Part shown: positions 33,799 through 55,157 of the stretch, piece by piece
How the letters are laid out: each line of letters opens with the position of its first letter
How positions within the stretch are numbered: the first letter of the stretch is position 1
Source: Promethearchaeota archaeon
GTDB taxonomy: Archaea; Asgardarchaeota; Lokiarchaeia; Sigyniarchaeales; SOKP01
NCBI GenBank assembly: GCA_030599585.1
Contig: JAUVNS010000007.1
Coordinates: 1 to 64,000, forward strand
Direction: 5' to 3'
DNA: 64,000 nucleotides
Made by a program: the position numbers and the translations under genes
Notes under the pieces: model-generated
What the model was told of the DNA's origin: nothing
Seen by the model: only the letters and a program-made list of their open reading frames with translations
Databases searched by the model: none

Positions 33799-34269
33799 AT
33801 GAAAAGAAAAGAAAAAGAGCGAAAAAAGGGAATAGAACAACGACAACAAAAAACAATTAAAAATCCTCGTTTAGAAGCGCTTTCAGAGATTTCGGAGTTA
33901 ATAAATGATGCAAATGATTCCTATATGAAAATGGATTATGATAATGCAATCAATTACTCCGAAAAAGTGATTAGATTAGCTATAAAATCAAATTTTGAAC
34001 AACATATAGAAGAACAACAACAATTCTTGATAAAAATTGCTGAGAAAGTACAAGAAAAGTATTTTGTTTCAGAAATTAATGAAGCGATCAAAGAAATTGA
34101 AAAAATCTATAATATACTTCTTGAAGCTAAACAGATTTCTCAAGCTCATGAAATTTTAGAAACTTTTAAGAGGCACTATCAAGATAAGATTGATTTAGAT
34201 TCTATACCTTTAATAAAAGAATTAGAAATGAAGGATCGAAGAGAATGGGTAAAAAATAAAGTAGAATAA
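33799..34269 (+). CDS. all-helical (TPR/MIT-like) module protein, paralog of 43343 and 44491 ORFs
   Basis: LEALSEISEL...Y....Y..AI...EK.I.LA...AHEILETFK..Y...IDL.SIPL aligns with both paralogs. Confidence 0.75.
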   Translation: MKRKEKERKKGIEQRQQKTIKNPRLEALSEISELINDANDSYMKMDYDNAINYSEKVIRLAIKSNFEQHIEEQQQFLIKIAEKVQEKYFVSEINEAIKEIEKIYNILLEAKQISQAHEILETFKRHYQDKIDLDSIPLIKELEMKDRREWVKNKVE

Positions 34270-42198: not shown

Positions 42199-42747
42199 AT
42201 GGGAGGTATCGAAGTTATAGAAGAAATAAACGATGGCAATCTTTATCTTCGCAAAATTTCTAAAGAAGATATTGCATTTTTCTTTCAGAGTTTGAAAAAT
42301 AAAGATATGACAAATTATCTATCGCTTGGACCTTTATTGTCGTACGAACATTCAAAACGCTTAATAAAAAACTATTTAAAATCTTGGGAAAAGTACCTCC
42401 AGTTTAATTATGTGATAGAATTAAGGGAAAATCAAAAAAAAACTAGAATTGGTTCTGTTAGTCTATGGAATATCAATTGGTTTCATCAACGTTCCAGAAT
42501 AGGTATATGGATTCTCCCAACATATTGGGAACGTGGAATAGGTACGAAAACTATAACTTTGATAAAGATTATCGGATTCAACCATTTGAACCTAAACAGA
42601 ATTGAAGCCCATATAGCTATGAAAAATGAGAGATCGATTAAAATGTTTAAAAAATCTGGTTTTATTGAAGAAGGCACCTTGAGAGCATACCTTAATATCA
42701 CCGGAGAGTTCCAAGATGCTCTCTTGGTAGCTTGTTTTAAAACCTAG
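42199..42747 (+). CDS. GNAT N-acetyltransferase (RimJ/RimL family)
   Basis: IG.WI.P.YW.RGIGT, L.RIEA.....NERS.....K.GF.EEG.LR. Confidence 0.9.
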   Translation: MGGIEVIEEINDGNLYLRKISKEDIAFFFQSLKNKDMTNYLSLGPLLSYEHSKRLIKNYLKSWEKYLQFNYVIELRENQKKTRIGSVSLWNINWFHQRSRIGIWILPTYWERGIGTKTITLIKIIGFNHLNLNRIEAHIAMKNERSIKMFKKSGFIEEGTLRAYLNITGEFQDALLVACFKT

Positions 42748-43190
42748 GATATACTGGGGTTTAGTTGGTAACCTCGTAAAAATCCTTTCGATTTTACAAT
42801 CTTGTGTATATCTGAAGAAAACGACTTAAATTGTGAAAAATTTCCATTAAAATTGATCAATTCTTTTTTGAATTTGGTTAAGAACTGATCAAAGAGTTTA
42901 ACAGCAACACTATCAAGATATTTTTTTTTCTGTTTTTTACTATCTACTCTACTATCGCACTTAAAAATTAGATGAAAATTAGATTTAGGATGAGTATAAA
43001 AGTAAAATACGCTCTTGTTCATCCGTAACGTGTTCAAACTTTCTTTAAATCCATATTTTGTGAATCTGCATATCTGGTCGAAATAACTCGCAATCAGGTG
43101 ATAATTTTCATCCTCATTTGAACTATCACCAAAATTATGGAAAAATATGGGTATACCCTCACCATTCAATAATGTGATCTTTTGGATCAA
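42744..43190 (-). CDS. stand-alone longin-like domain protein
   Basis: I..ITLLN.EG.PIFFH.F...LIASYF..I..F...FLTKF...L.NFNGN.SQF..F...I; same pattern as the N-terminal domain of 9701-10591. Confidence 0.75.
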   Translation of the reverse strand: MIQKITLLNGEGIPIFFHNFGDSSNEDENYHLIASYFDQICRFTKYGFKESLNTLRMNKSVFYFYTHPKSNFHLIFKCDSRVDSKKQKKKYLDSVAVKLFDQFLTKFKKELINFNGNFSQFKSFSSDIHKIVKSKGFLRGYQLNPSIS

Positions 43191-43342
43191 TTTCTATCCA
43201 AAACATATATTCTTTTTTGTAGTATTTATATGTTCGGTAAAAAAATAAGGATGAGTTTGTATTAATTAAAATGGTTATTAACACGAAAATAAAAGTAGAT
43301 TGTTCTACCAAAATAAGGAAGAGGATATTTTTATGCGTTTTT

Positions 43343-44488
43343 TTATTGTGACTTTTTGGTTTTGATTAATTCTATAATTTCCTTAAAAATTAGCAGAGAA
43401 TTATCGTATTCTTCCGTTTTTAGAGCCCCAATTGCTTGAAAATTTAATTTTTTAACCTTATTTGCAATCTTTTCGGCTTCTGCTCCCAACTTTATTTTCT
43501 TTTCCAGTAAATTTATATATTCATCAAACCTCTCAATATTTTTGGTTTTACCTATAAACCGGGATATTTTGATAATTTGGCTAATGTTGTCTATAGCTTG
43601 TTTAAAACGGTTTTGAGTGATATTATCCTTGATGAGAACTTCTAAAGCTTTTAATTCGTCTTCTAATTTGAGGTATTTACTTTCAGCATCAAGAATATAT
43701 ATCATTTTTGCTTCTATATCTTTGTTATATTCTGATAGATCCTCCTTTTCTAAAAATTCGATTTTTGAGTCGAGGATTCTTTTAGCTTTCTCAAATTCGT
43801 AATTTTCTGTTAATTTAGATACTTCTTTTAAATCTTTCTCAATAATTTCATTAAGAACATATCTTTTCCTTAATTCTAAATACAGTATTTCGGAAGTTTC
43901 CCACATTTTAAGGATATTACTATTAGTGAGTTTTTTTAAAAGCGCTTTCGCTTGTTCTAATGTCTCTCCCGCTAAAGAGAGATTATTAGTACTAACATAA
44001 CTATTAAATTGTATTTCTAATGGTTCCAACTGCCTAATCAAGTTTTGTTCCCTTGTTATGAATTCGTTCCATATTTTTGAATCTCTTAATAAAAACTCCT
44101 TTACATTACTAAAAGAATTCAAATCAATATTTCTTTCATGATATTGCTTAAATGTCTGGACTAAATCATGCGCTTCTTCAATGTTCCCTTTTCCTACAAG
44201 CTTATAAAATTCTTTTTCTAAACTTTCGAAATCATCCCTGATAACGATATATTTATGCTCTTCTTTAGCTTGTTTATAAAGATTAGCTATGTATTCACCT
44301 TCTTCTCTAACAACAGAATATAACCTAGCTTGTTCTGCAATATCCATTATTTCTTCAGCAATTTTTATAGCTTCGTCGAATTTTCCCATTAGATAGTGAT
44401 TATTCGCAATCACTTTTAACTCGTCAATTTTAGATAAGACCTCTAGTTTTTTTTTATTATCCTCTCCTTCATCGAGATTATAATTAAT
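43343..44488 (-). CDS. all-helical repeat (TPR/MIT-like) protein, probable ATT start
   Basis: Track start is GTG 44413, but the conserved helix LEVLSKIDEL lies upstream in frame; repeated helix-hairpin units follow. Confidence 0.75.
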   Translation of the reverse strand: MNYNLDEGEDNKKKLEVLSKIDELKVIANNHYLMGKFDEAIKIAEEIMDIAEQARLYSVVREEGEYIANLYKQAKEEHKYIVIRDDFESLEKEFYKLVGKGNIEEAHDLVQTFKQYHERNIDLNSFSNVKEFLLRDSKIWNEFITREQNLIRQLEPLEIQFNSYVSTNNLSLAGETLEQAKALLKKLTNSNILKMWETSEILYLELRKRYVLNEIIEKDLKEVSKLTENYEFEKAKRILDSKIEFLEKEDLSEYNKDIEAKMIYILDAESKYLKLEDELKALEVLIKDNITQNRFKQAIDNISQIIKISRFIGKTKNIERFDEYINLLEKKIKLGAEAEKIANKVKKLNFQAIGALKTEEYDNSLLIFKEIIELIKTKKSQ

Positions 44489-44490
44489 GA

Positions 44491-45564
44491 TTATTCACCA
44501 ACTTTTTGCGAGTTATTTAATTCCAAATTTTGCACAATTTCTTCATAAATTCTTAGAGCATTAGAAAATTCTCCAATTTTTAAGTATTCTAGGGCAGATT
44601 CACACAACTTTCTTATGTTGTTGTAGAACTCATTATTGACGCTACGATATTTGCTTTTCAGAATGTCGACTTTGTCTTTGATTCTTTTATCAAAGTATTT
44701 TAAACTTGACTTCTGGATAGTAGCAAGAAATTTTTTAGTTTGTTTTAAAAATATTATGCTCCTGCTCTTTCCCATTTTTTCAGAAAAATTGTCGATATCC
44801 TTTAAAATTTTATCTTGCTCGATTTTTAACTTATATACCATATTTTCTTCTTTCATTAATAATTGTTGAGCTAACGGTATGGAAGAGAGTTCATATTTAT
44901 CTGCGTATTTTTGTTTGAATTCTTCAACGACAGTACGAGCTTCTTCGTAATCCTCTGCTTCTACTAATTGCTTAAATCTTTTAGTTTTTTCCTTACAGAC
45001 TAACTCAATTTCATTAAGGATTTCACTTGCGCGAGCTCTTATGTGAGCTTCATTGATAAAATTGATTTGATCTTGTTCGAGCGAATCATCATTTATATCC
45101 CTTGCTAAATTAACTATTTTTTGAGCAAGCTTAATAGCTTCTCCATAGTTATTAGCAATGAAAAATTTGTCAGATTTCTCTTTCAACCTATTTATTTCAG
45201 AAAGCACAGGTAATAATTTAACTTCTAACGTTTTAATATTTGATTTAAGAATTTCTTTTTCAATTCCTATAATATTCAAGAATTCTGGAGGTTCTAATCC
45301 CGATTCTATAGTAATATTTCTTAAAATTTTTAATTCTGGATATTTTCTTGAAATCGCACCCCGAATTTGAGGAATATGTCTTTTTAAACTTTGAGCTGCT
45401 TTTTTTCCCATCCATACATACATCCGTTTTAGGTCTGGAATATAAAAGATCAAAACATTGAAGAGGGTTAAGTTATTAGTTAATTCTTCTTGGGGGATTT
45501 CTTCGAAATTACCAGAATATCGTAACTTATAAACTTTGAAATCAGAACTCATCTCTAGAATCAC
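44491..45564 (-). CDS. gelsolin-like domain fused to helical repeat module
   Basis: N-terminal ~100 aa: VYKL...G.FEEI...VLIF......MYVWMGK.A...TIESGLEPPEFL (gelsolin YVWxG and EGxEPxEF motifs). The remainder is paralogous to the 33799 and 43343 ORFs. Confidence 0.8.
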   Translation of the reverse strand: MILEMSSDFKVYKLRYSGNFEEIPQEELTNNLTLFNVLIFYIPDLKRMYVWMGKKAAQSLKRHIPQIRGAISRKYPELKILRNITIESGLEPPEFLNIIGIEKEILKSNIKTLEVKLLPVLSEINRLKEKSDKFFIANNYGEAIKLAQKIVNLARDINDDSLEQDQINFINEAHIRARASEILNEIELVCKEKTKRFKQLVEAEDYEEARTVVEEFKQKYADKYELSSIPLAQQLLMKEENMVYKLKIEQDKILKDIDNFSEKMGKSRSIIFLKQTKKFLATIQKSSLKYFDKRIKDKVDILKSKYRSVNNEFYNNIRKLCESALEYLKIGEFSNALRIYEEIVQNLELNNSQKVGE

Positions 45565-45656
45565 TTAAGGATCAATAGTATTTCAATTTATATTAAGAAA
45601 AAAGAGAAGAGTCAAAAATAATATTAAACAATTTTTTTTAGTAGTTAGAATCTCTA

Positions 45657-48600
45657 CTAATCAGAACTTTCAATAGGCTCCTTTAAAATTTTATCTGGTT
45701 TAGGAGTTACTTTTGCTGGTTTTCCTTTTAGGAGCTTCGCATTTTTAGCTATTTCACCCTGGTATTTTACTTTAAATGCTTTTTCTCTAGCAGTTATGTC
45801 AACTCCTGGACTTTTTGTTTTTCTCAGCGTTTTACTATATTTTCTAACCTTCCTGACAGGTTTTGGAAATTTAAATATCTTTTGATAAAGATATAAATAC
45901 GTAAGCAATGCAGCCGCTGTTATTCCGCCGATTATAGATAATAATTGGAATAATAATAAATCTTCTTTTGGTATATTAGCACTTATTACTATTTCATACG
46001 ATGTAAAATCGTAATCTTCACCCTTATAAGCATTTATCGTCAAAGTGAACGAACCCTCTTGAATATTTGTCAATGTAACTGTGTATATGCCATCATTATT
46101 ATCATCAGTTAAGACACCATTACCATGAGCCCATCTATATGTAACTATAGCGCCCTTCACTGTACCTCCAAAGTCTAAGTTGTTTATTACAATATTTAAA
46201 GTAACACTTTCGCCGGGTCTTATAACTCTATTTGACTCCCCTGTAATATTTGTTCGTATTCTCACTACACTTACGTATATTTTTTGGATTAAAAACAGCT
46301 CGAAATTTGCTTTCTCCGCAATTAAAGTAAGGATACCTAATCCAACTCCCAGATCAGTCGTATTTATTATTATTGAATATTGTTCTAAAGCTATAGATTC
46401 AGATAACAGACCCGCCAAATCCCCATTTAACTGAACAATAGCACCTGAAATATGATTTTCTGCTCGGATATCACTATATTTGATTGTTAAATTAAGAAGA
46501 GAACCTATAGTAAGCTCAATATAAGGATCTAGTGTTTTATTTAATTCATTGATAAAAAGCGCGCCAGTGGACCCTCTTTCAATAATTTGTATGAAGAACT
46601 CAATAAGGGCTGTTTGATAATTTGTTACTTGAGCACGGATGACTATCCTATTTAAAGTGCTATTTAAATCAATTATGTTTATTGTTATGTTGTAATGCTC
46701 TAGTAACGCATTTTCTGTCATATATCCCTTATCTATTATATCAACATCTGCACCACCGAGATATTCTTTCGTGAGGTTATCAAGATAATTTACAGTTATA
46801 TTTAACATATCGGTTACTTCCAATTGGATAGTTTCTCCATTATAGTACTGAGATCCATTCAGAAAAAGTAGTAATTCAGTTTTCTTTTCGTCTATTATAA
46901 GCGTTATTACTTCTGAAGTCAAAGTATAATTATCTGTTTTTGCGCTTATAGTTAAAAATTTAACCCCTACTCCTAAATCATCAGCAGTTATAGTGATATA
47001 ATATTGGTTAAAGATTAAACTCTCAGTTAAATCTGTTGGAGTCCCTGATTCAATTAATCGGACATTCGCAGAATCTATGAAAGAGTCTGTGTTCAAATCC
47101 TTATAGAAAACAGTAATGTTCAATTGTTCTCCGATAGAAATATTGTAAAATTCAAAATTAGATGATAGTGTACCATTTAGATAAACATCAACTTTAGTGT
47201 CTCTTTCGGTGACAGATATAGAAATTATTCTCGAAGAAAGAGTATAATTCTCCTTAATAGCTGAAATCGTTAGAAAATTAATGCCAAGCGCCATTAATGC
47301 TGTGTTGATATTTAAACTATAATCTATCGGTGAATTTTCTGTGAAGTTTTCAGAAATTCCCGTTCCCGAAAGTTGCACCGATGCTCCACTAATAAAAGAA
47401 TTATCTAAACTGTCATTATAGGATATTGAAATGCTTAAAATTTCATTCCAAGGAATTTCTATTGATGTGGTTTCAATTCCGTCTAAATTTATATTGTCCA
47501 TATAAGAATTTCTCTCAAGTACTTCTATTTTAAAACGAATGGATTGAGTAGTATAATTTTCTTTAAATGCATTAACAGTGAGGAAACTGTTCCCTAAACC
47601 AAGATCCGTAGTGTTGATTATAATGGAATATTGATCATTTGAAAGATCTTCAGTTAAATTTTGCGGATTACCTATTCCAATCAATTCTACAGTTGCTCCA
47701 TCTATATGTATAGGAAGTTGTTCAATGTCTTTGTATGTTATTGTTATATTTCCATCATTTCCATATATCATCTCTATAGATTTATCCAAAGTTTGGTTTG
47801 TGCTATCTAAGTAGAGTTGTAATTCCGTGTTTCTTTCAATTACTTTTATATTGATTAACTCTGATATTGATTCGTAATACTTTTTACTCGCAGATATGGT
47901 TAAGAAATTATTACCAATCTGTAAGTTCGAAGATTGAATAGTAATATTATAATGTTCCAACGGATTATTTTCTGTTAAATTCTTAGGTGATCCTAATCCC
48001 ACCAGCTGTACTGCCGCATTTTGTATGAAATTGTTGTTAGTTTGATTTTTATATATAATTGTAATATTAATCGGATTACCCATAGTGACTTCAATTGATT
48101 TTTCTAATGTTTTATTTACACTGTTAAGGAATATATCTGTTTTAGTTTCTGTTTCTACTATATTTTCTGTATAAGAAATTACTAAACTTGCATTATCTAT
48201 TGAGACAATTCTTTTTTGTTCTAAAGGAAATGTATCCGCAAGAAAGACTTGTATAGTTAGAGTTATATTTTCATCCTTTAAAATTAGATTAGAGACGTCA
48301 AATCCTCCAATTTTAGCATCTTGAAAAGTGGTGTTTCCTGAACTCAATTTTATTGTCTCAGAATGTTGTCTGTCGTTAATTAAAACCCTTATTTCGGAAT
48401 TTGGAGAGGATTCGGTCCAATTTTGATCAAGCTTATATTTAAAATTAAGAGTAGCGTTATTTATTATAATATTACTCCCACTAATAGTATTTCCTATTTG
48501 ATTCCACGATATTTTAGTAAGTTCGTCGATTTTCTTTTTATATGTAAAAGTGAAATTTAAATACTTAAAGATTAATGAATCCCACCTATCACGATCGACA

Positions 48601-49517
48601 CCAGATTCATTATCTTCGCAATAAATGTCAATACCCAAAGTAATTGTAAATTGGTAATTATTAGTTTTAAATAAACTTGTTAAAATAGCAATTAAAATAT
48701 CTTGGGGGACAATATCTAATAAGGTATCACCATAACTGGGGATTGCAGGTGAATCTTGCCCTAAATCAACTGTTTGATTATAAGCTACTTCAAATTCAAA
48801 AGTGTTATCTGGATCAGAAATTAAAACATAAAATCTAGCATAATCTCCAGTTGAAAATTGCAATGGAGTATCACCAGGATCACCTGGACAATCAATTCCT
48901 CCATTCCACCAAGGGGATGTTGTAACAGTAGCATTAAAATAAGCTTCAACAGAAGCAGATGTAATAATATAATCTGACATATTTACTGGCATTGTTATAT
49001 TTCTTTTCCAATGAATACTAGGTGTATTATGAGTTTGACCCGCAGCTTCATTCTCATCCCAGAAATGATAAACATTCAAACCGGCAGAATCATTGAAAAA
49101 GTTATCAGGGTATCTTGGAAAACGTGGATTAGTAAAATTAGCCCAATCTAAATTTGGTGGATCTGCGACTAATTCAAATGTATTTGTTTCACCTAACACT
49201 TCGAAATTGGCTTGATCATTATCAGAAGTAGCGTTAACATCAGAAATATCTCCATCAGTTGTGTTATACCATGGAGTTATTGGAGTGGTAAATTCAGTAT
49301 TATCTAGCCATTCAATAGTATAAACATCTTGAACAATTCCTTGAGATTTGGGGTGAATATCTCTTAAATCATTATTATAACTATTTAATGTATCGATAGA
49401 TTGATACTCTACTAAGTTTGACATGAAAATAACTGATAGATTCCCAATAAAAATGAGAACCAAAAGTGCAATAACATATTTTGTCTTGGTCTTTTTATTA
49501 ATAAACATAATTCTCAC
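45657..49517 (-). CDS. large single-pass cell-surface glycoprotein with ~7 tandem Ig-like beta repeats
   Basis: N-terminal hydrophobic segment, many NxT/S sequons, ~100-aa repeats (LNIT..YKD...I.GA.VQL.G...LTE...Y.I.INT..LG.G.NFLTI.A.K.NY), C-terminal TM and basic tail. Probable start ATG 49508. Confidence 0.85.
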   Translation of the reverse strand: MRIMFINKKTKTKYVIALLVLIFIGNLSVIFMSNLVEYQSIDTLNSYNNDLRDIHPKSQGIVQDVYTIEWLDNTEFTTPITPWYNTTDGDISDVNATSDNDQANFEVLGETNTFELVADPPNLDWANFTNPRFPRYPDNFFNDSAGLNVYHFWDENEAAGQTHNTPSIHWKRNITMPVNMSDYIITSASVEAYFNATVTTSPWWNGGIDCPGDPGDTPLQFSTGDYARFYVLISDPDNTFEFEVAYNQTVDLGQDSPAIPSYGDTLLDIVPQDILIAILTSLFKTNNYQFTITLGIDIYCEDNESGVDRDRWDSLIFKYLNFTFTYKKKIDELTKISWNQIGNTISGSNIIINNATLNFKYKLDQNWTESSPNSEIRVLINDRQHSETIKLSSGNTTFQDAKIGGFDVSNLILKDENITLTIQVFLADTFPLEQKRIVSIDNASLVISYTENIVETETKTDIFLNSVNKTLEKSIEVTMGNPINITIIYKNQTNNNFIQNAAVQLVGLGSPKNLTENNPLEHYNITIQSSNLQIGNNFLTISASKKYYESISELINIKVIERNTELQLYLDSTNQTLDKSIEMIYGNDGNITITYKDIEQLPIHIDGATVELIGIGNPQNLTEDLSNDQYSIIINTTDLGLGNSFLTVNAFKENYTTQSIRFKIEVLERNSYMDNINLDGIETTSIEIPWNEILSISISYNDSLDNSFISGASVQLSGTGISENFTENSPIDYSLNINTALMALGINFLTISAIKENYTLSSRIISISVTERDTKVDVYLNGTLSSNFEFYNISIGEQLNITVFYKDLNTDSFIDSANVRLIESGTPTDLTESLIFNQYYITITADDLGVGVKFLTISAKTDNYTLTSEVITLIIDEKKTELLLFLNGSQYYNGETIQLEVTDMLNITVNYLDNLTKEYLGGADVDIIDKGYMTENALLEHYNITINIIDLNSTLNRIVIRAQVTNYQTALIEFFIQIIERGSTGALFINELNKTLDPYIELTIGSLLNLTIKYSDIRAENHISGAIVQLNGDLAGLLSESIALEQYSIIINTTDLGVGLGILTLIAEKANFELFLIQKIYVSVVRIRTNITGESNRVIRPGESVTLNIVINNLDFGGTVKGAIVTYRWAHGNGVLTDDNNDGIYTVTLTNIQEGSFTLTINAYKGEDYDFTSYEIVISANIPKEDLLLFQLLSIIGGITAAALLTYLYLYQKIFKFPKPVRKVRKYSKTLRKTKSPGVDITAREKAFKVKYQGEIAKNAKLLKGKPAKVTPKPDKILKEPIESSD

Positions 49518-49773
49518 CCTTCTACTAGATGTAGATAATTTTTATAATTTGGACTTAATAAATTCTGTAAGGAAATACTTATTTATAATATATTTTAACA
49601 TTTAATACTTAGTCTAGATAAAATTAATGTCATTGAATTTAAAGCAAAGAAAAATTAAATCAGAATTTTCAGAGTTGCCTCTTTTTGTATCAGATAGGAA
49701 AGGACTTTTATAAATAATTTATATCTTTCATAAATAAAAGATATGAAATTGAAGAAAATAAAAAGGAAATTTA

Positions 49774-51417
49774 TTATTTTGGCAATAGATCCTCTTTTTT
49801 GTCGAGCAATTTATCTCTCAATATTTTTCCATTTTTCGGAGCGCCTTTTAAAAGCTTTTCAGTCTTTTTTAACTCTTGATGATAATCCCTACTGAATGAT
49901 GTTTTTTGACTTACAATACCAACACCAGGAGTTTTATCATTAGATAATGATTTTCTATACTTTCTCACTTTTCTAACAGGAACAGGATATTTTAAATATG
50001 TTTGGTAAGCAATTAGGTAAGCAGCTAAAACTCCAGCACCGATTACTGAAATAATGAATAATCCTGTAAATATCCAAGGTTCTGGTATAACATCTGTGAA
50101 AGTTTCAATATAAGAAATCAAAAGCGTAGCATTTGTGATTGAAACTGTAATTAAATTCTCTAAACCAAACTCATCTGCTAAATAAACTTGAATCGAAAGG
50201 CTGATATTAACATCTTTTAATATCAAAGGTGTCACATCATATCCTCCGATTTTGGCTTTTTGGAAAGAATCTGTAACTGTACTAAGTTTTATTGTTTCAG
50301 TATGAAGGTTATTGTTGATTAAAACTCTTAATTCAGAGTTAGGAGACGAGCTTGTCCAATTTTGATCTATTTTATATTCAAATTGTAGGTTTCCCCCCAT
50401 GATCAACTTGTTTGGACCACTAATAGATTCCCCTACTTGGTTCCATGATACTGATGTAAACTGATCAATTTTTTTTCTATACGCGAATGTAAAGTTCAAC
50501 GATCTAATGATTAGAGAATCCCACCTGTCCCTATCCACTCCTGATTCGTTATCTTCACAATAGATATCAATTCCTAAAGTGATGGTAAAATTAAAATTAT
50601 TTTCTTTAAAAATCGCCGTAAGGTAAGCAATCAAAACTTCTTGAGGAACGGGTACCATTAATGTATCAGGATAGCTAGGAACAGCTGGAGAATCTTGCCC
50701 TAAATTAATTGTTTGATTATAAGCAATTTCATACTCATAAGTATTATCGGGATCTGATATAAGAACATAAAATCTTGCATAATCACCAGTAGAAAATTGT
50801 AAAGGAGTATCTCCTGGATCTCCGGGACAATCTATGCCCCCCGTACTATATGGTGATACTGTTACAGTTGCATTAAATGTTGCTTGAACTGAAGCAGATG
50901 TAATTATGTAATCAGACATATTTACTGGCATAGTAAAACCCCTTTGCCAATGAACGCTAGGGGTATTATGTGTCTGTCCAGCAGATTCAGCTTCATCCCA
51001 AAAATGAAACACATTTAATCCCGCTGAATCAGTAAAATTGCTATCTGGGAATCTCGGGAAACGCGGATTATTAACAGCTGTCCAATTTCCATCAGGAGGA
51101 TCTGCTACTACTTCAAATATGAAATCTTCCCCTAATATTGCCATATTTGCTTGATTTGTACCGGTGCTAGTATCAACATCTGAGGTGTCTCCTATGATAT
51201 TGGAAAACCACGTAGGTTCAATTGGATCTTCAAATGTCGGATTTTCGAGCCAAAGCTCATTCAGATATTCTATCGTCCCAGAAGTCTTAGGATTTATGCT
51301 AGTTTCACGATTTAATTGACTAAAAGAATTCAAACTTGGAAACGCAATGCTGACAATAATGATGGCAAGTATAACGTACAAAAACCATCGCTTATTTAAT
51401 TTGAGTAATATTCGCAT
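49774..51417 (-). CDS. single-pass cell-surface glycoprotein, repeat-less paralog of 45657-49517
   Basis: Shares GGIDCPGDPGDTPLQFSTGDYARFYVLISDPDNT, LGIDIYCEDNESGVDRDRWDSLI and the tail PVRKVRKY with the larger paralog. Confidence 0.85.
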   Translation of the reverse strand: MRILLKLNKRWFLYVILAIIIVSIAFPSLNSFSQLNRETSINPKTSGTIEYLNELWLENPTFEDPIEPTWFSNIIGDTSDVDTSTGTNQANMAILGEDFIFEVVADPPDGNWTAVNNPRFPRFPDSNFTDSAGLNVFHFWDEAESAGQTHNTPSVHWQRGFTMPVNMSDYIITSASVQATFNATVTVSPYSTGGIDCPGDPGDTPLQFSTGDYARFYVLISDPDNTYEYEIAYNQTINLGQDSPAVPSYPDTLMVPVPQEVLIAYLTAIFKENNFNFTITLGIDIYCEDNESGVDRDRWDSLIIRSLNFTFAYRKKIDQFTSVSWNQVGESISGPNKLIMGGNLQFEYKIDQNWTSSSPNSELRVLINNNLHTETIKLSTVTDSFQKAKIGGYDVTPLILKDVNISLSIQVYLADEFGLENLITVSITNATLLISYIETFTDVIPEPWIFTGLFIISVIGAGVLAAYLIAYQTYLKYPVPVRKVRKYRKSLSNDKTPGVGIVSQKTSFSRDYHQELKKTEKLLKGAPKNGKILRDKLLDKKEDLLPK

Positions 51418-51635: not shown

Positions 51636-52892
51636 ATGATTCAAGGAATTTTGACTTTTAAGTTTAATCTAAATCAGAATGAGACTACTGGAGAGATAAA
51701 TCCTGAATTTAGTCCTATTCAATTAGTCTTTTCGAACAAAAAATTCGAGGAAAATGATTTTTCAGGACTAATCATAGAAAATGATATCTTTGCTAATTTT
51801 TATCAGCATACCGTAGGCATTTTAAATCCGAAATATGGATTTAGTAATTATTATACCGGTCACCTGAAAGAAACACCCTACCAAGTGTATTCATACTTCA
51901 AGCAATTAGCTGATGGCACTCAATATTTAACAATATCAATGTTTGAATTAGATGATGAAATTGAGCTATTTGAAGACTTAATAAAAGATATGGCTAAAAG
52001 ATTAGATACCATTTACGATAAATTAACTAAAGCTTCAAATACAAGACAACTAGATTTAATATCTAACGTTAACATCCGTCTTAAAAATGAATTAAAGTAT
52101 ACGATTTTTCAAATTGAACGCTTAAGCCAATTAGATAAGCTTCAAAAAGTAGCATTAATCTACAATAGTAACGAAAGGCTAAAAATTCTGGATGTTCTAA
52201 GGGAAAGACCTTTGGCTAAAAGCGAAATGAAGACTACCATCGAGAATCTGAAGCCTACTGCAAATATTGACATTTTATTGCGTCCCTTCTTAGAGCTCAA
52301 TTTAATTAGGCGCGATTGGATAAAAGGAGAGAAGGATAGAAAAACAGGAGTAATAACTAATCAAGGCGAATACATATTTTTAGTTAAAGATATCCTGTTC
52401 GCACGCGTTCCAAATCAAAATCTTCTTAAACATTTTAAGGAGACTAACAACGATCTCTTGCCGCTTTTTAAACAAAAGTCTTTAGATTTCTTCAACAATT
52501 ACGATCCTTATGATGAACCTTTTGAGAATACACAAAAATTAGCGGCAATATTATTAAACCCAGATGTATATGATTTCTTCATCTTAATGCGCTCAAACCA
52601 TTATCCACTAGATAAAATACCGAAAATCTTTTCAGAATTCGCCGTTACGGAGATACTGCTTGACAACCTGAAGAAATTGAATGTCATTACCGAGATTAAA
52701 GACCAAAACAAAAGGAGTTGGATTTGCTTACTTACGGATATTAAACCTTTAACCATTTTTCCAGAATATATACTGCCCAAGATAAGAGAAGCTTATAGAA
52801 AAGAAGATGAAGAAGGTAAAATAACGTATGAAATCGCAAAAAAAGCTTTAAATTTATTAGAAGTATCATTTCCAGAAAAAGTTACTTTTTAA
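51636..52892 (+). CDS. hypothetical protein: putative longin-like N-domain plus winged-helix domains
   Basis: Beta/alpha N-terminal region; RLKILDVLRERPLAKSEM...IDILLRPFLELNLIRRDW is wHTH-like; a second wHTH-like segment follows. Confidence 0.6.
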   Translation: MIQGILTFKFNLNQNETTGEINPEFSPIQLVFSNKKFEENDFSGLIIENDIFANFYQHTVGILNPKYGFSNYYTGHLKETPYQVYSYFKQLADGTQYLTISMFELDDEIELFEDLIKDMAKRLDTIYDKLTKASNTRQLDLISNVNIRLKNELKYTIFQIERLSQLDKLQKVALIYNSNERLKILDVLRERPLAKSEMKTTIENLKPTANIDILLRPFLELNLIRRDWIKGEKDRKTGVITNQGEYIFLVKDILFARVPNQNLLKHFKETNNDLLPLFKQKSLDFFNNYDPYDEPFENTQKLAAILLNPDVYDFFILMRSNHYPLDKIPKIFSEFAVTEILLDNLKKLNVITEIKDQNKRSWICLLTDIKPLTIFPEYILPKIREAYRKEDEEGKITYEIAKKALNLLEVSFPEKVTF

Positions 52893-52925
52893 ATTTGAAA
52901 TAATATTGAAAGAGATGAATAATAA

Positions 52926-55157
52926 ATGTATTTATTTAAAGAAAAGGACGAAGTTGAAGTTTCATATACCTGTAAATTGTGTTTAAAAGAAATTCCTTTC
53001 AAAATAACTAAAAAGGAATATCAAGAAGTTACCAGATTTCCTATAACCAAGCAATTGACGCACGGAGACCCTGCGCACAAATTAATAGTTAATTTTAATC
53101 AATATTTAGAAGTTGAAAATTTTGAAATTGAAGAAATCCTTCAGAAGGAAGAAGTAACTTATTCAGAAGAACTCACAAAGCAAGTTTTAAGTGAGATCGA
53201 TCTTACGGATGACGAGATTGAACTCTATTTCAGAATTACAGGTCGTGAAGCAGTGAGTATTGGTGAAATCGCAATACTTACTGGTAAGACCAAAGCAGTG
53301 TGTAAGGAAATTGCTGATAAATTCGTTCAAAAGGGATTGTTTAAGGAGATTGTTGGGGCACAACCGCATTATAGTGCTTTACCCCCATATGCGGCGTTAG
53401 TAAGCCAATTACGAAAATTCCATCAATATATCTCTGATATTAAAAAGAGCATACCTACGCAGTTAGAAAAATCTTTTAAAGAGTTAGAATCTGAAACTGG
53501 AAAGGTCGAAGTAAAGCCAAAAGCAGTTCCCACAGAACTAATGTCAGAATTAAAAAATAACATGTTAACTCAAATTCGTACACAAAAGAAAGAATTTGAC
53601 GATACGCTAGCAGTTATGGATCAAATTAGAGGCATCACTGACGACATAACAAACATTGAAGGTTATACTGAAACCGTTATGGGTGGTCAAATGGGAAACC
53701 TTAAGAAGCAATTTGAAGATATTAATATCAAAACGTCTCAAATCATTAAAGGACAAATAAACGACTTGAAAAGCGAATTTGAGAATATTAAGACAACTGT
53801 TTCTAAAAATTTACAAAAATTACGCTTAGGAGTAATCCAACAAACTGTAGACCAAGTAATCGATAAAGTAATGAACGCAAAAATAAAAGATATTTCTGAT
53901 AACATAAATGTTCAATTGAGCGTAAGCCAAGTGGCTTTTACAGATGAATTGAAAAAAGTTGCTCAAGGTGTGGACTCAGAACTAATTACAAAATTAAAAG
54001 CGTCTTTAAAAGATACTCTTAAAAATATCGATGGTCTGAGTTCAAAAGCTAAAGATGAGGAAAAAATATACGATGATATAACGGAGAATTTTAATAAAGC
54101 TGTAAGAATGGCGGAAGAGAAAATTGAAGGAATCTCTGGAACTACTTTTGAGTCTTTAGGGACGTTAAAGAATGTGTTTTCCGATCAAATTGTTGCCACA
54201 CTAGATAACACTTTGGATGACATTTTAGGTAAACTCGAAAGGTCCGAAAAGGTAACTAATGAATTCTGGCAACAAGCAAAAACCGGAAAATCAATTACAA
54301 TGAAAGATATCTGGTTCATAAGATCGCCTGAGGCCGCAAAAGCACACATAGACGATGAAATTTCAAAAGCCAAAATGAGAATTTTACTTGTAGCGCCTCA
54401 AATTAGCGACATTAATATTAAAGCGATCATGGAACGCCCTTCGAGAATCAACTTCAGAATTACAGCTAACATAGATTTTTCAAACTCTGAACATGTCGCT
54501 ATAGTAGAACAATTAGATAAGATGGATAATGTAGATTATCGACATAGAGCACTACAAAACTTATGGGGAATTAATAGAGATTACGAAGAAGTAATAGTGT
54601 GTGTCTTATCCAAGGCAGAAGTGCGGGGAGAATCAATCACAGAAATTGCAGGGATCGGGAGTATAATAGAAGAACACATCAAAATATTCGTTCCCATCTT
54701 AGAAGAATCTTGGATGAGTTCGAGAAAAGAAGTAATGCATTCTATTAAATCAAACATAGAAAGAGAGATTTCAACACCAAAACCTCAAACAAGTGTAGAA
54801 CTCAAAAAAGAAGAACAGAAAGAAAGAGCAAGGTTAAAACCCCAAGTTCAAATCCCAAAAGTCATGGTCCCACAGGAATCGCTAACTACAGAAAAACCAG
54901 CTGGAAAAGAATCATTATTAACAAAACAATTTAATTTGATCTTCGAAAATTTAGACTCTTTAATGGGTTTAGAGATATCTTCAGCTCTTGAGAAATTTCA
55001 AAGCGAATACATCAAAGACAAAGGTTACAACAGCGTTTTAAAGAACATACATAACACCAGCACGACTTTGAAGAGCAAAACTTATGTGCTGAGTCAACCA
55101 GAGAAAGATGACTTAAAACAAAAAATGAATTTTTGGAGAACTAAACTAGATCTTTAA
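52926..55157 (+). CDS. multidomain TrmB-like protein: CxxC/HxxxxH domain, wHTH, long coiled coil, PLD-like (TrmB effector) domain, helical C-terminal bundle
   Basis: CKLC...HGDPAH; LTDDEIELY...SIGEIA.LTG...KGLF...YSALPP (TrmB HTH); AKMRILLVAP...RD.EEV. Confidence 0.7.
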   Translation: MYLFKEKDEVEVSYTCKLCLKEIPFKITKKEYQEVTRFPITKQLTHGDPAHKLIVNFNQYLEVENFEIEEILQKEEVTYSEELTKQVLSEIDLTDDEIELYFRITGREAVSIGEIAILTGKTKAVCKEIADKFVQKGLFKEIVGAQPHYSALPPYAALVSQLRKFHQYISDIKKSIPTQLEKSFKELESETGKVEVKPKAVPTELMSELKNNMLTQIRTQKKEFDDTLAVMDQIRGITDDITNIEGYTETVMGGQMGNLKKQFEDINIKTSQIIKGQINDLKSEFENIKTTVSKNLQKLRLGVIQQTVDQVIDKVMNAKIKDISDNINVQLSVSQVAFTDELKKVAQGVDSELITKLKASLKDTLKNIDGLSSKAKDEEKIYDDITENFNKAVRMAEEKIEGISGTTFESLGTLKNVFSDQIVATLDNTLDDILGKLERSEKVTNEFWQQAKTGKSITMKDIWFIRSPEAAKAHIDDEISKAKMRILLVAPQISDINIKAIMERPSRINFRITANIDFSNSEHVAIVEQLDKMDNVDYRHRALQNLWGINRDYEEVIVCVLSKAEVRGESITEIAGIGSIIEEHIKIFVPILEESWMSSRKEVMHSIKSNIEREISTPKPQTSVELKKEEQKERARLKPQVQIPKVMVPQESLTTEKPAGKESLLTKQFNLIFENLDSLMGLEISSALEKFQSEYIKDKGYNSVLKNIHNTSTTLKSKTYVLSQPEKDDLKQKMNFWRTKLDL

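Follow-up and report, generated by a model that had tools for sequence, protein, structure and literature searches.

In culture, Asgard archaea move by crawling on protrusions that are filled with actin and attach at their tips, and the surface molecules and their cytoskeletal link are unknown (PMC13716822). The 1DGelX architecture, in which a single gelsolin domain is followed by a helical/coiled-coil domain X, has been published (Akil et al., 2020, PNAS, PMC7444086). Thor 1DGelX binds rabbit actin with a Kd of 7.7 µM and severs filaments without calcium control (PMC7444086), and GelX-type proteins of Lokiarchaeum ossiferum (B35_GelX) are among the proteins that co-immunoprecipitate with Lokiactin (preprint 10.1101/2025.11.30.690169). 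Here we describe a locus of a Promethearchaeota archaeon (Lokiarchaeia) in which genes for surface glycoproteins with a conserved cytoplasmic tail lie beside a gene for a GelX-type protein. The stretch analysed, called the window in the following, comprises the first 64,000 nt of contig JAUVNS010000007.1 (assembly GCA_030599585.1).

The locus includes five consecutive open reading frames (ORFs) on the minus strand (49774-51417, 45657-49517, 44491-45564, 43343-44413 and 42744-43190). All five were already listed in an initial annotation made from the sequence alone, which read them as one system coupling paired receptors to actin. None of the five proteins reaches the Pfam or NCBIfam thresholds. 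The organisation is reminiscent of integrin-talin/kindlin and cadherin-catenin adhesions, with a type-I glycoprotein, an Ig-like stalk, one transmembrane (TM) helix, a conserved membrane-proximal basic tail motif and cytoskeleton-related neighbour genes. In contrast to those systems, no relation in sequence or fold was found and there is no FERM, PTB, vinculin or catenin domain, which leaves an analogy only. The integrin-talin likeness drawn in the initial annotation does not extend to the adaptors: Pfam finds no FERM/PTB adaptor, and the proteins fold into gelsolin, three-helix-bundle and longin structures.

For comparison we used 151 genomes of the order (24 genera, four families), 131 of them from the same family; all absences reported here mean not found within the genomes searched. 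The genus of the window is termed g1 and its sister genus g12, and a further genus, g16, shares the gene adjacency in part. Loci from sixteen other species of g1 were compared for synteny within the genus. We propose, with a probability of about 0.5, that the region consists of two gene sets that are neighbours in g1 and would form no obligate unit, and that the companions of the tail would be the products of two adjacent plus-strand genes of 418 and 743 codons.

Surface glycoproteins and their cytoplasmic tail

The surface genes and the two plus-strand genes have the following features.

49774..51417, minus strand: short surface protein, 547 aa (ORF, translation, hydropathy); N-terminal signal/anchor 11-29, head of ~400 aa, TM helix 452-470, cytoplasmic tail 471-547
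49777..50007, minus strand: tail of the short protein, membrane-proximal motif YQxxLKYPxPVRKVRKY (alignment of ~40 paralogs/orthologs, profile matches)
45657..49517, minus strand: long surface protein, 1286 aa (ORF, hydropathy, paralogy); head ~45-455, repeats ~460-1085, PKD-like domain 1096-1163, TM helix 1187-1205, tail 1206-1286
45660..45902, minus strand: tail of the long protein, motif YQKIFKFPKPVRKVRKY (tail alignment, profile matches)
51636..52892, plus strand: 418-aa protein, divergently encoded, the most constant neighbour of tail-bearing genes
52926..55157, plus strand: 743-aa partner, always beside the 418-aa gene, with a long helical middle part

The tails are 77 or 81 aa long and contain 21-23 K/R versus 7-8 D/E. 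An alignment of about 40 tails from 16 relatives has the consensus Y-Q-x-x-L-K-[YF]-P-x-P-V-R-K-V-R-K-Y, after which comes a conserved stretch of helix-like character, and the tail pattern described initially holds across this set. At the family level ~50 further tail residues are conserved beyond the membrane-proximal motif. The core found throughout the order, [AL]Y[QH]xx[FL]K[YF]Pxx[VI]R[KE][VI][RH], is strictly conserved and located just inside the membrane. A profile of the TM helix plus tail has matches in 140 of the 151 genomes, in 23 of 24 genera and in all four families. In distant families the conserved part is reduced to the membrane-proximal core, for example IAYQQHFKYPKIIREIR, IAYQKYLKYPKVIRKIRK and IAYHLRFKYPPLVRKIH; it can still be made out in families f2 and f4, which have distal tails of 186-291 aa. 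Such invariance, in the tail as a whole and above all in this core, exceeds what would be expected of a mere positive-inside signal and makes some partner of the tail likely.

The two surface proteins are paralogs. Their heads share 63% identity across 438 aa and their TM-plus-tail regions 35% (E 3e-19), and hydropathy analysis shows one N-terminal hydrophobic segment and a single C-terminal TM helix in both. N-glycosylation sequons are enriched in the ectodomains, with 41 observed versus 20.4 +/- 3.6 expected for the long protein and 11 versus 6.1 +/- 2.1 for the short one; the cytoplasmic tails of both proteins contain none. This distribution fits the proposed topology. Between head and TM helix the long form carries a stalk of six ~105-aa repeats and one PKD-like domain (PF00801, E 1e-4, below the cut-off). 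Thus, the paralogous type-I membrane glycoproteins with a common ectodomain seen in the initial annotation are borne out, as are its approximately seven Ig-like stalk repeats restricted to the long form. The head has no sequence or profile match in Pfam, NCBIfam or PDB and no informative match in the Atlas.

In g1 the surface genes occur in arrays of one to five tail-bearing genes with variable stalks, and some surface proteins of the relatives consist of stalk, TM helix and tail without the shared head. An in-frame fusion of two short surface genes gives an ORF of ~1115 aa in three species of the genus (L021:9853-13206, L022:6038-9400, L023:10082-13423). The order head, TM helix, tail, second hydrophobic segment, head, TM helix, tail is topologically possible for a double receptor.

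Archaeal S-layer glycoproteins that are anchored C-terminally share with these proteins the abundant sequons, the Ig-like repeats and the single C-terminal TM anchor. They differ in the tail, which amounts to a few basic residues there and is 75-291 aa long and conserved here, and the genes described here are arranged in groups of 1-5 or more paralogs whose stalks vary. It was fair to note, as the initial annotation did, that a passive S-layer protein would not be expected to carry such a tail. Anchoring by the PGF-CTERM/archaeosortase route is not indicated by any NCBIfam match or by a PGF ahead of the TM helix, and the tail has 77-81 aa.

Constant neighbours of the tail-bearing genes

The 418-aa family was found in 147 of the 151 genomes and in 24 of 24 genera. 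Coordinates from the two profile scans, one for the 418-aa gene and one for the tail gene, were compared with a limit of 10 kb. The two genes lie at most 10 kb apart in at least 59 genomes, which belong to seven genera and two families. Orthologs of the 418-aa/743-aa pair flank surface genes in g1, g12, g16 and g20. In family f2 (L. ossiferum, G032, G038 and G025) the 418-aa gene, the 743-aa gene and a surface gene follow each other on one strand with overlapping ends; the L. ossiferum orthologs are UYP44569.1 for the surface protein and UYP44571.1 for the 418-aa protein.

The genome of the window contains a second surface cluster, which is distributed over contigs C41 (1-6900, minus strand) and C8 (1-9730, plus strand) that abut through Ig-like repeats. 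The tails encoded there are a variant, YQxxFKYPPxVRKxRKxRKKIxKGKK, and downstream of the cluster lie separate paralogs of the 418-aa and 743-aa genes (32% and 30% identity, respectively). The genes that precede this cluster encode a 151-aa roadblock-like protein and a 408-aa coiled-coil protein.

Matches of the two proteins to known domains are few. Residues 171-236 of the 418-aa protein have weak winged-helix matches only, and residues ~83-181 of the 743-aa protein resemble weakly a TrmB-like winged helix (profile versus PDB 3qph, E 0.019); no Pfam match was obtained for the 743-aa protein. The profile of the 418-aa family was also compared with that of the longin protein of the locus and showed no detectable relation (probability 1.2%), and the X rod described below is not shared by the 743-aa family (probability 2%).

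The GelX protein, its rod paralog and the longin protein

The other three minus-strand genes encode the following proteins.

44491..45564, minus strand: GelX-type protein, 357 aa as ORF (structure model, fold and sequence matches to ProGel); gelsolin domain ~8-102, helical 'X' rod 103-351
43343..44494, minus strand: rod paralog, ~383 aa (homology to the X domain, start/stop overlap in relatives)
42744..43190, minus strand: stand-alone longin-fold protein, 148 aa (structure model, fold matches)

GelX probably starts at the invariant Met5 (45552), which gives a protein of ~353 aa. Altogether 114 homologs were found, and the structure model, built on 33 homologs, has a predicted local distance difference test score (pLDDT) of 84.7. 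The gelsolin domain matches ProGel (7c2f) by sequence (phmmer E 3.4e-5; adseverin, E 0.015) and by fold (7c2f_D, VIA Z 13.4, root-mean-square deviation 1.9 Å over 88 of 88 residues; 7c2f_B, Foldseek TM-score 0.82). Adseverin, gelsolin, fragmin and villin follow with VIA Z 10-11.7. Pfam PF00626 has no match to the domain at E<=1, and a PF00626 scan of the genome misses the GelX gene. In the model the X rod consists of four long-plus-short helix pairs, which form consecutive three-helix bundles linked by continuous helices. Single bundles match the MIT domain 2w2u_B (Z 9.7, root-mean-square deviation 1.3 Å, 63 residues), which is within the noise for helical proteins.

The rod paralog is related to the X domain with an hhalign probability of 99.8% (E 2e-29, 238 columns) and is located directly downstream of GelX in every genus examined. 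In relatives its ATG overlaps the TGA stop codon of GelX as ATGA. At 44492-44494 (minus strand) of the window the start of the paralog reads ATA, and the same base change makes the GelX stop TAA and not TGA. The 27 codons upstream of the annotated GTG start (44413) are open and conserved, and a start at this GTG would cut the conserved N-terminus. Translation of the paralog would begin either at the ATA or by re-initiation. GelX and the paralog probably pair through their homologous rods.

The model of the longin protein (pLDDT 74.5) has the order beta-beta-alpha-beta-beta-beta-alpha-alpha (DSSP) without an N-terminal helix, unlike roadblock proteins. Longin domains account for at least the 30 best VIA matches (Z 8-12.5), among them synbindin (12.5), Sec22 (12.2), VAMP7 (11.6), sedlin (11.5) and AP2 sigma (10.3), and roadblock/MglB proteins score ~7. 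Foldseek returned AP2 sigma, Tca17 and Sec22b, and the ESM Atlas sedlin and sybindin clusters. No sequence match was obtained in Pfam, NCBIfam or PDB, including the longin, sedlin, sybindin and AP-sigma families. The gelsolin-like domain fused to a helical module, the tightly coupled helical paralog and the stand-alone longin protein of the initial annotation are thus all recovered, by the ProGel matches, by the hhalign probability and ATGA overlap, and by the synbindin versus roadblock scores, respectively.

Like 1DGelX and B35_GelX, the GelX protein of the window combines an N-terminal gelsolin/cofilin-fold domain with a helical region, and its nearest solved structure is Thor ProGel. Unlike 1DGelX, it is short (~353 aa), translationally coupled to a rod paralog and encoded beside surface genes; it is assigned to this class by its architecture. 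The longin protein shares the beta2-alpha-beta3-alpha2 fold with TRAPP sedlin/synbindin, Sec22/VAMP7, AP sigma and SRX (Z 10-12.5), and like sedlin and the AP sigma subunit it is small and stand-alone. In contrast to these proteins it has no sequence-family match and was seen in only 5 of 24 genera.

Besides a clear actin (E 2.7e-132), the same genome contains genes for at least four other proteins with gelsolin domains. At 33799-34269 (plus strand), within a low-molecular-weight phosphatase gene cluster, the X rod is encoded on its own as a 156-aa protein; it is ~30% identical to GelX 106-264 (E 1e-9 to 6.5e-17), and copies of 160-200 aa occur in many relatives. The gene at C26:227638-228861 (minus strand) encodes 407 aa, and the first 130 residues of its product are paralogous to the longin protein (28% identity, E 1e-6). 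The GelX pair of g12 is located in a region orthologous to the neighbourhood of this gene.

With profiles at a cut-off of E<=1e-15, GelX or the X paralog was found in 89 of the 131 family genomes and the longin ortholog in 94 of the 151 genomes, the latter confined to five of the 24 genera. Five genomes of 98-100% completeness (G044, G059, G041, G045 and G064) have no match to the GelX/X profile and contain 2-5 tail genes each. The acetyltransferase and crotonase genes come immediately after the surface genes in g12 (nine loci), g15 and g20. In g12 a 540-aa GelX and the rod paralog lie beside aconitase-like genes and the longin ortholog lies alone at a third place. The GelX loci of g13, g14, g15, g17, g19 and g22 keep the rod paralog and have no tail gene nearby. 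L. ossiferum has two GelX-like genes at 3.36 and 3.74 Mb, each encoding a protein with similarity to the gelsolin domain as well as to the rod (E 6.5e-44 and 6e-33), and its tail gene is located at 1.06 Mb. Longin and GelX genes co-occur inconsistently, and outside g1 the adjacency was found only in part of g16. Synteny elsewhere had been set beforehand as the test that could refute the proposed system; it is seen in g1 and in part of g16 and is lacking in g12, g15, g20 and L. ossiferum.

In the g16 genome G092 a 767-aa protein encoded between the surface genes and GelX (L055:8567-10870) has a weak, sub-threshold match to an AP medium subunit (E 0.007). Two ~685-aa TPR proteins are encoded after the rod paralog of this genome (L055:15386-19518), and such proteins also follow GelX in g14, g15 and g17. 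No relation to the longin protein was detected for the N-termini of the ~680-aa TPR proteins encoded after GelX in g14-g17 (hhalign probability 0.3%).

NCBI labels on close homologs as Hod-, Hermod- or Thorarchaeota (the L038 contig, labelled Hodarchaeota; P0078, P0092 and P0112) conflict with synteny. Since these contigs share the synteny of this Loki-type genus (g1), the labels look unreliable and are unfit for inferring the distribution.

Possible partners of the tail

The initial annotation had assumed that the tails recruit the helical adaptors and thereby couple a receptor to actin and GTPase signalling. This claim is not supported: the synteny is limited, the tail is far more widespread than the trio of GelX, rod paralog and longin genes, and the constant linkage is with the pair at 51636-55157. 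The comparative data argue against an obligate tail-adaptor pairing. Distribution and linkage indicate the 418-aa/743-aa pair, and not the gelsolin trio, as tail readers or dedicated regulators.

Several observations weigh against dividing the region into two sets with the 418-aa/743-aa pair as companions of the tail. At all 16 loci of g1 the surface genes are followed by GelX, the rod paralog and the longin gene in the same orientation, with GelX identities down to 31%. In g16 the adjacency is seen despite a changed order: surface genes, longin, GelX (775 aa), rod paralog (695 aa) and acetyltransferase in G058 and G087, and surface genes, the 767-aa protein, GelX, rod paralog and two TPR proteins in G092 and G109. 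That this cluster survives rearrangement is a hint of selection for proximity. Trees of the flanking crotonase and acetyltransferase genes do not resolve the relationships of g1, g12 and g16, including a sisterhood of g1 and g16, so one and two origins of the adjacency are indistinguishable. The weak winged-helix signals in the 418-aa and 743-aa proteins are equally compatible with tail readers and with plain transcription regulators. In g1 the synteny extends to the flanking acetyltransferase and crotonase genes as much as to the trio, and contigs labelled as other phyla share the same flanks; with unrelated metabolic genes included in the conserved order, synteny within the genus is weak evidence either way. 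Oligo-T runs in the spacers downstream of both surface genes and upstream of the longin gene are uninformative, as these spacers have 15-26% GC.

The adjacency in g1 and g16 would be explained if the conserved tails recruited the GelX rod and/or its paralog and so supplied the receptor with gelsolin-type severing/capping and a longin/GTPase switch; in these two genera, at least, this would link adhesion to actin. The translational coupling of GelX with the rod paralog, the action of Thor 1DGelX on actin (PMC7444086), the actin gene of this genome and the requirement of Asgard crawling for adhesions of still unknown molecules (PMC13716822) are in line with such a role. The tail is kept, however, in many genomes and genera where GelX, the X paralog and the longin ortholog were not found, the genes are dispersed in g12 and L. 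ossiferum, six genera have GelX with no tail gene near it, and longin and GelX do not co-occur consistently. We consider this explanation improbable. It is also conceivable that the tail has no protein partner of interest, in which case the basic motif would be a signal for topology, lipid binding or sorting in a family of surface-coat proteins, the 418-aa and 743-aa pair ordinary transcription regulators of this family and the position of the trio the result of chance rearrangement. The tail is strongly basic right at the membrane, only ~17 residues are conserved throughout the order with distal tails varying from 75 to 291 aa, both neighbouring proteins carry the weak TrmB/winged-helix signals, an Asgard Atlas cluster joins a longin-like N-terminus with TrmB domains, and the whole region is syntenic in the genus. 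A positive-inside signal, however, needs no invariant Y, Q, K-Y-P and V-R-K-V-R across families and no ~50 further residues conserved within the family; in addition, the duplication of the surface genes came with a duplication of the partner pair and a changed tail, and the trio stays beside the surface genes through the g16 rearrangement. On balance a tail without such a partner seems rather unlikely.

In the two-set organisation that we prefer, the first set would comprise a varying number of single-pass surface proteins that are heavily N-glycosylated, have a common head and differ in the number of Ig-like stalk repeats, and its 418-aa and 743-aa companions would either read the tail or regulate the surface genes. 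The second set would be an actin-regulating module of a 1DGelX-class protein and its translationally coupled rod paralog, accompanied by the small longin protein. Judged from the gene distribution, GelX and the rod paralog would be a separate, widely conserved actin-regulator pair, and the longin gene appears to travel independently of both sets. The position of the trio beside surface genes in two genera, maintained through rearrangement, leaves room for a lineage-specific functional tie. Physical contact between the tail and the second set is only possible, and if it exists it would be a lineage-specific addition and not the reason for the conservation of the tail. A four-chain complex prediction with GelX, the X paralog, the longin protein and tail residues 20-96 scored 0.00 versus a mark of 0.32, which speaks neither for nor against binding. 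A bolder version, in which the surface proteins of g1 and g16 are adhesion receptors whose tails are clutched to Lokiactin via the GelX rod, the paralog and the longin protein, with the 418-aa/743-aa pair as an older, order-wide tail reader, must be regarded as a long shot. If true, the cluster would be a prokaryotic forerunner of receptor-adaptor-actin adhesion complexes.

Literature searches found no published description of the tail or of the cluster. The initial statement that no description was known therefore stands for the linkage to surface proteins and not for the GelX architecture, which has been published as 1DGelX (PMC7444086). The results redirect effort, because the gelsolin neighbour is probably not the main partner of the tail. 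The order-wide surface glycoprotein family, its invariant tail motif and the two constant companion genes are concrete candidates for the link between the cell surface and the cytoskeleton, and they are testable in Lokiarchaeum ossiferum, which carries orthologs.

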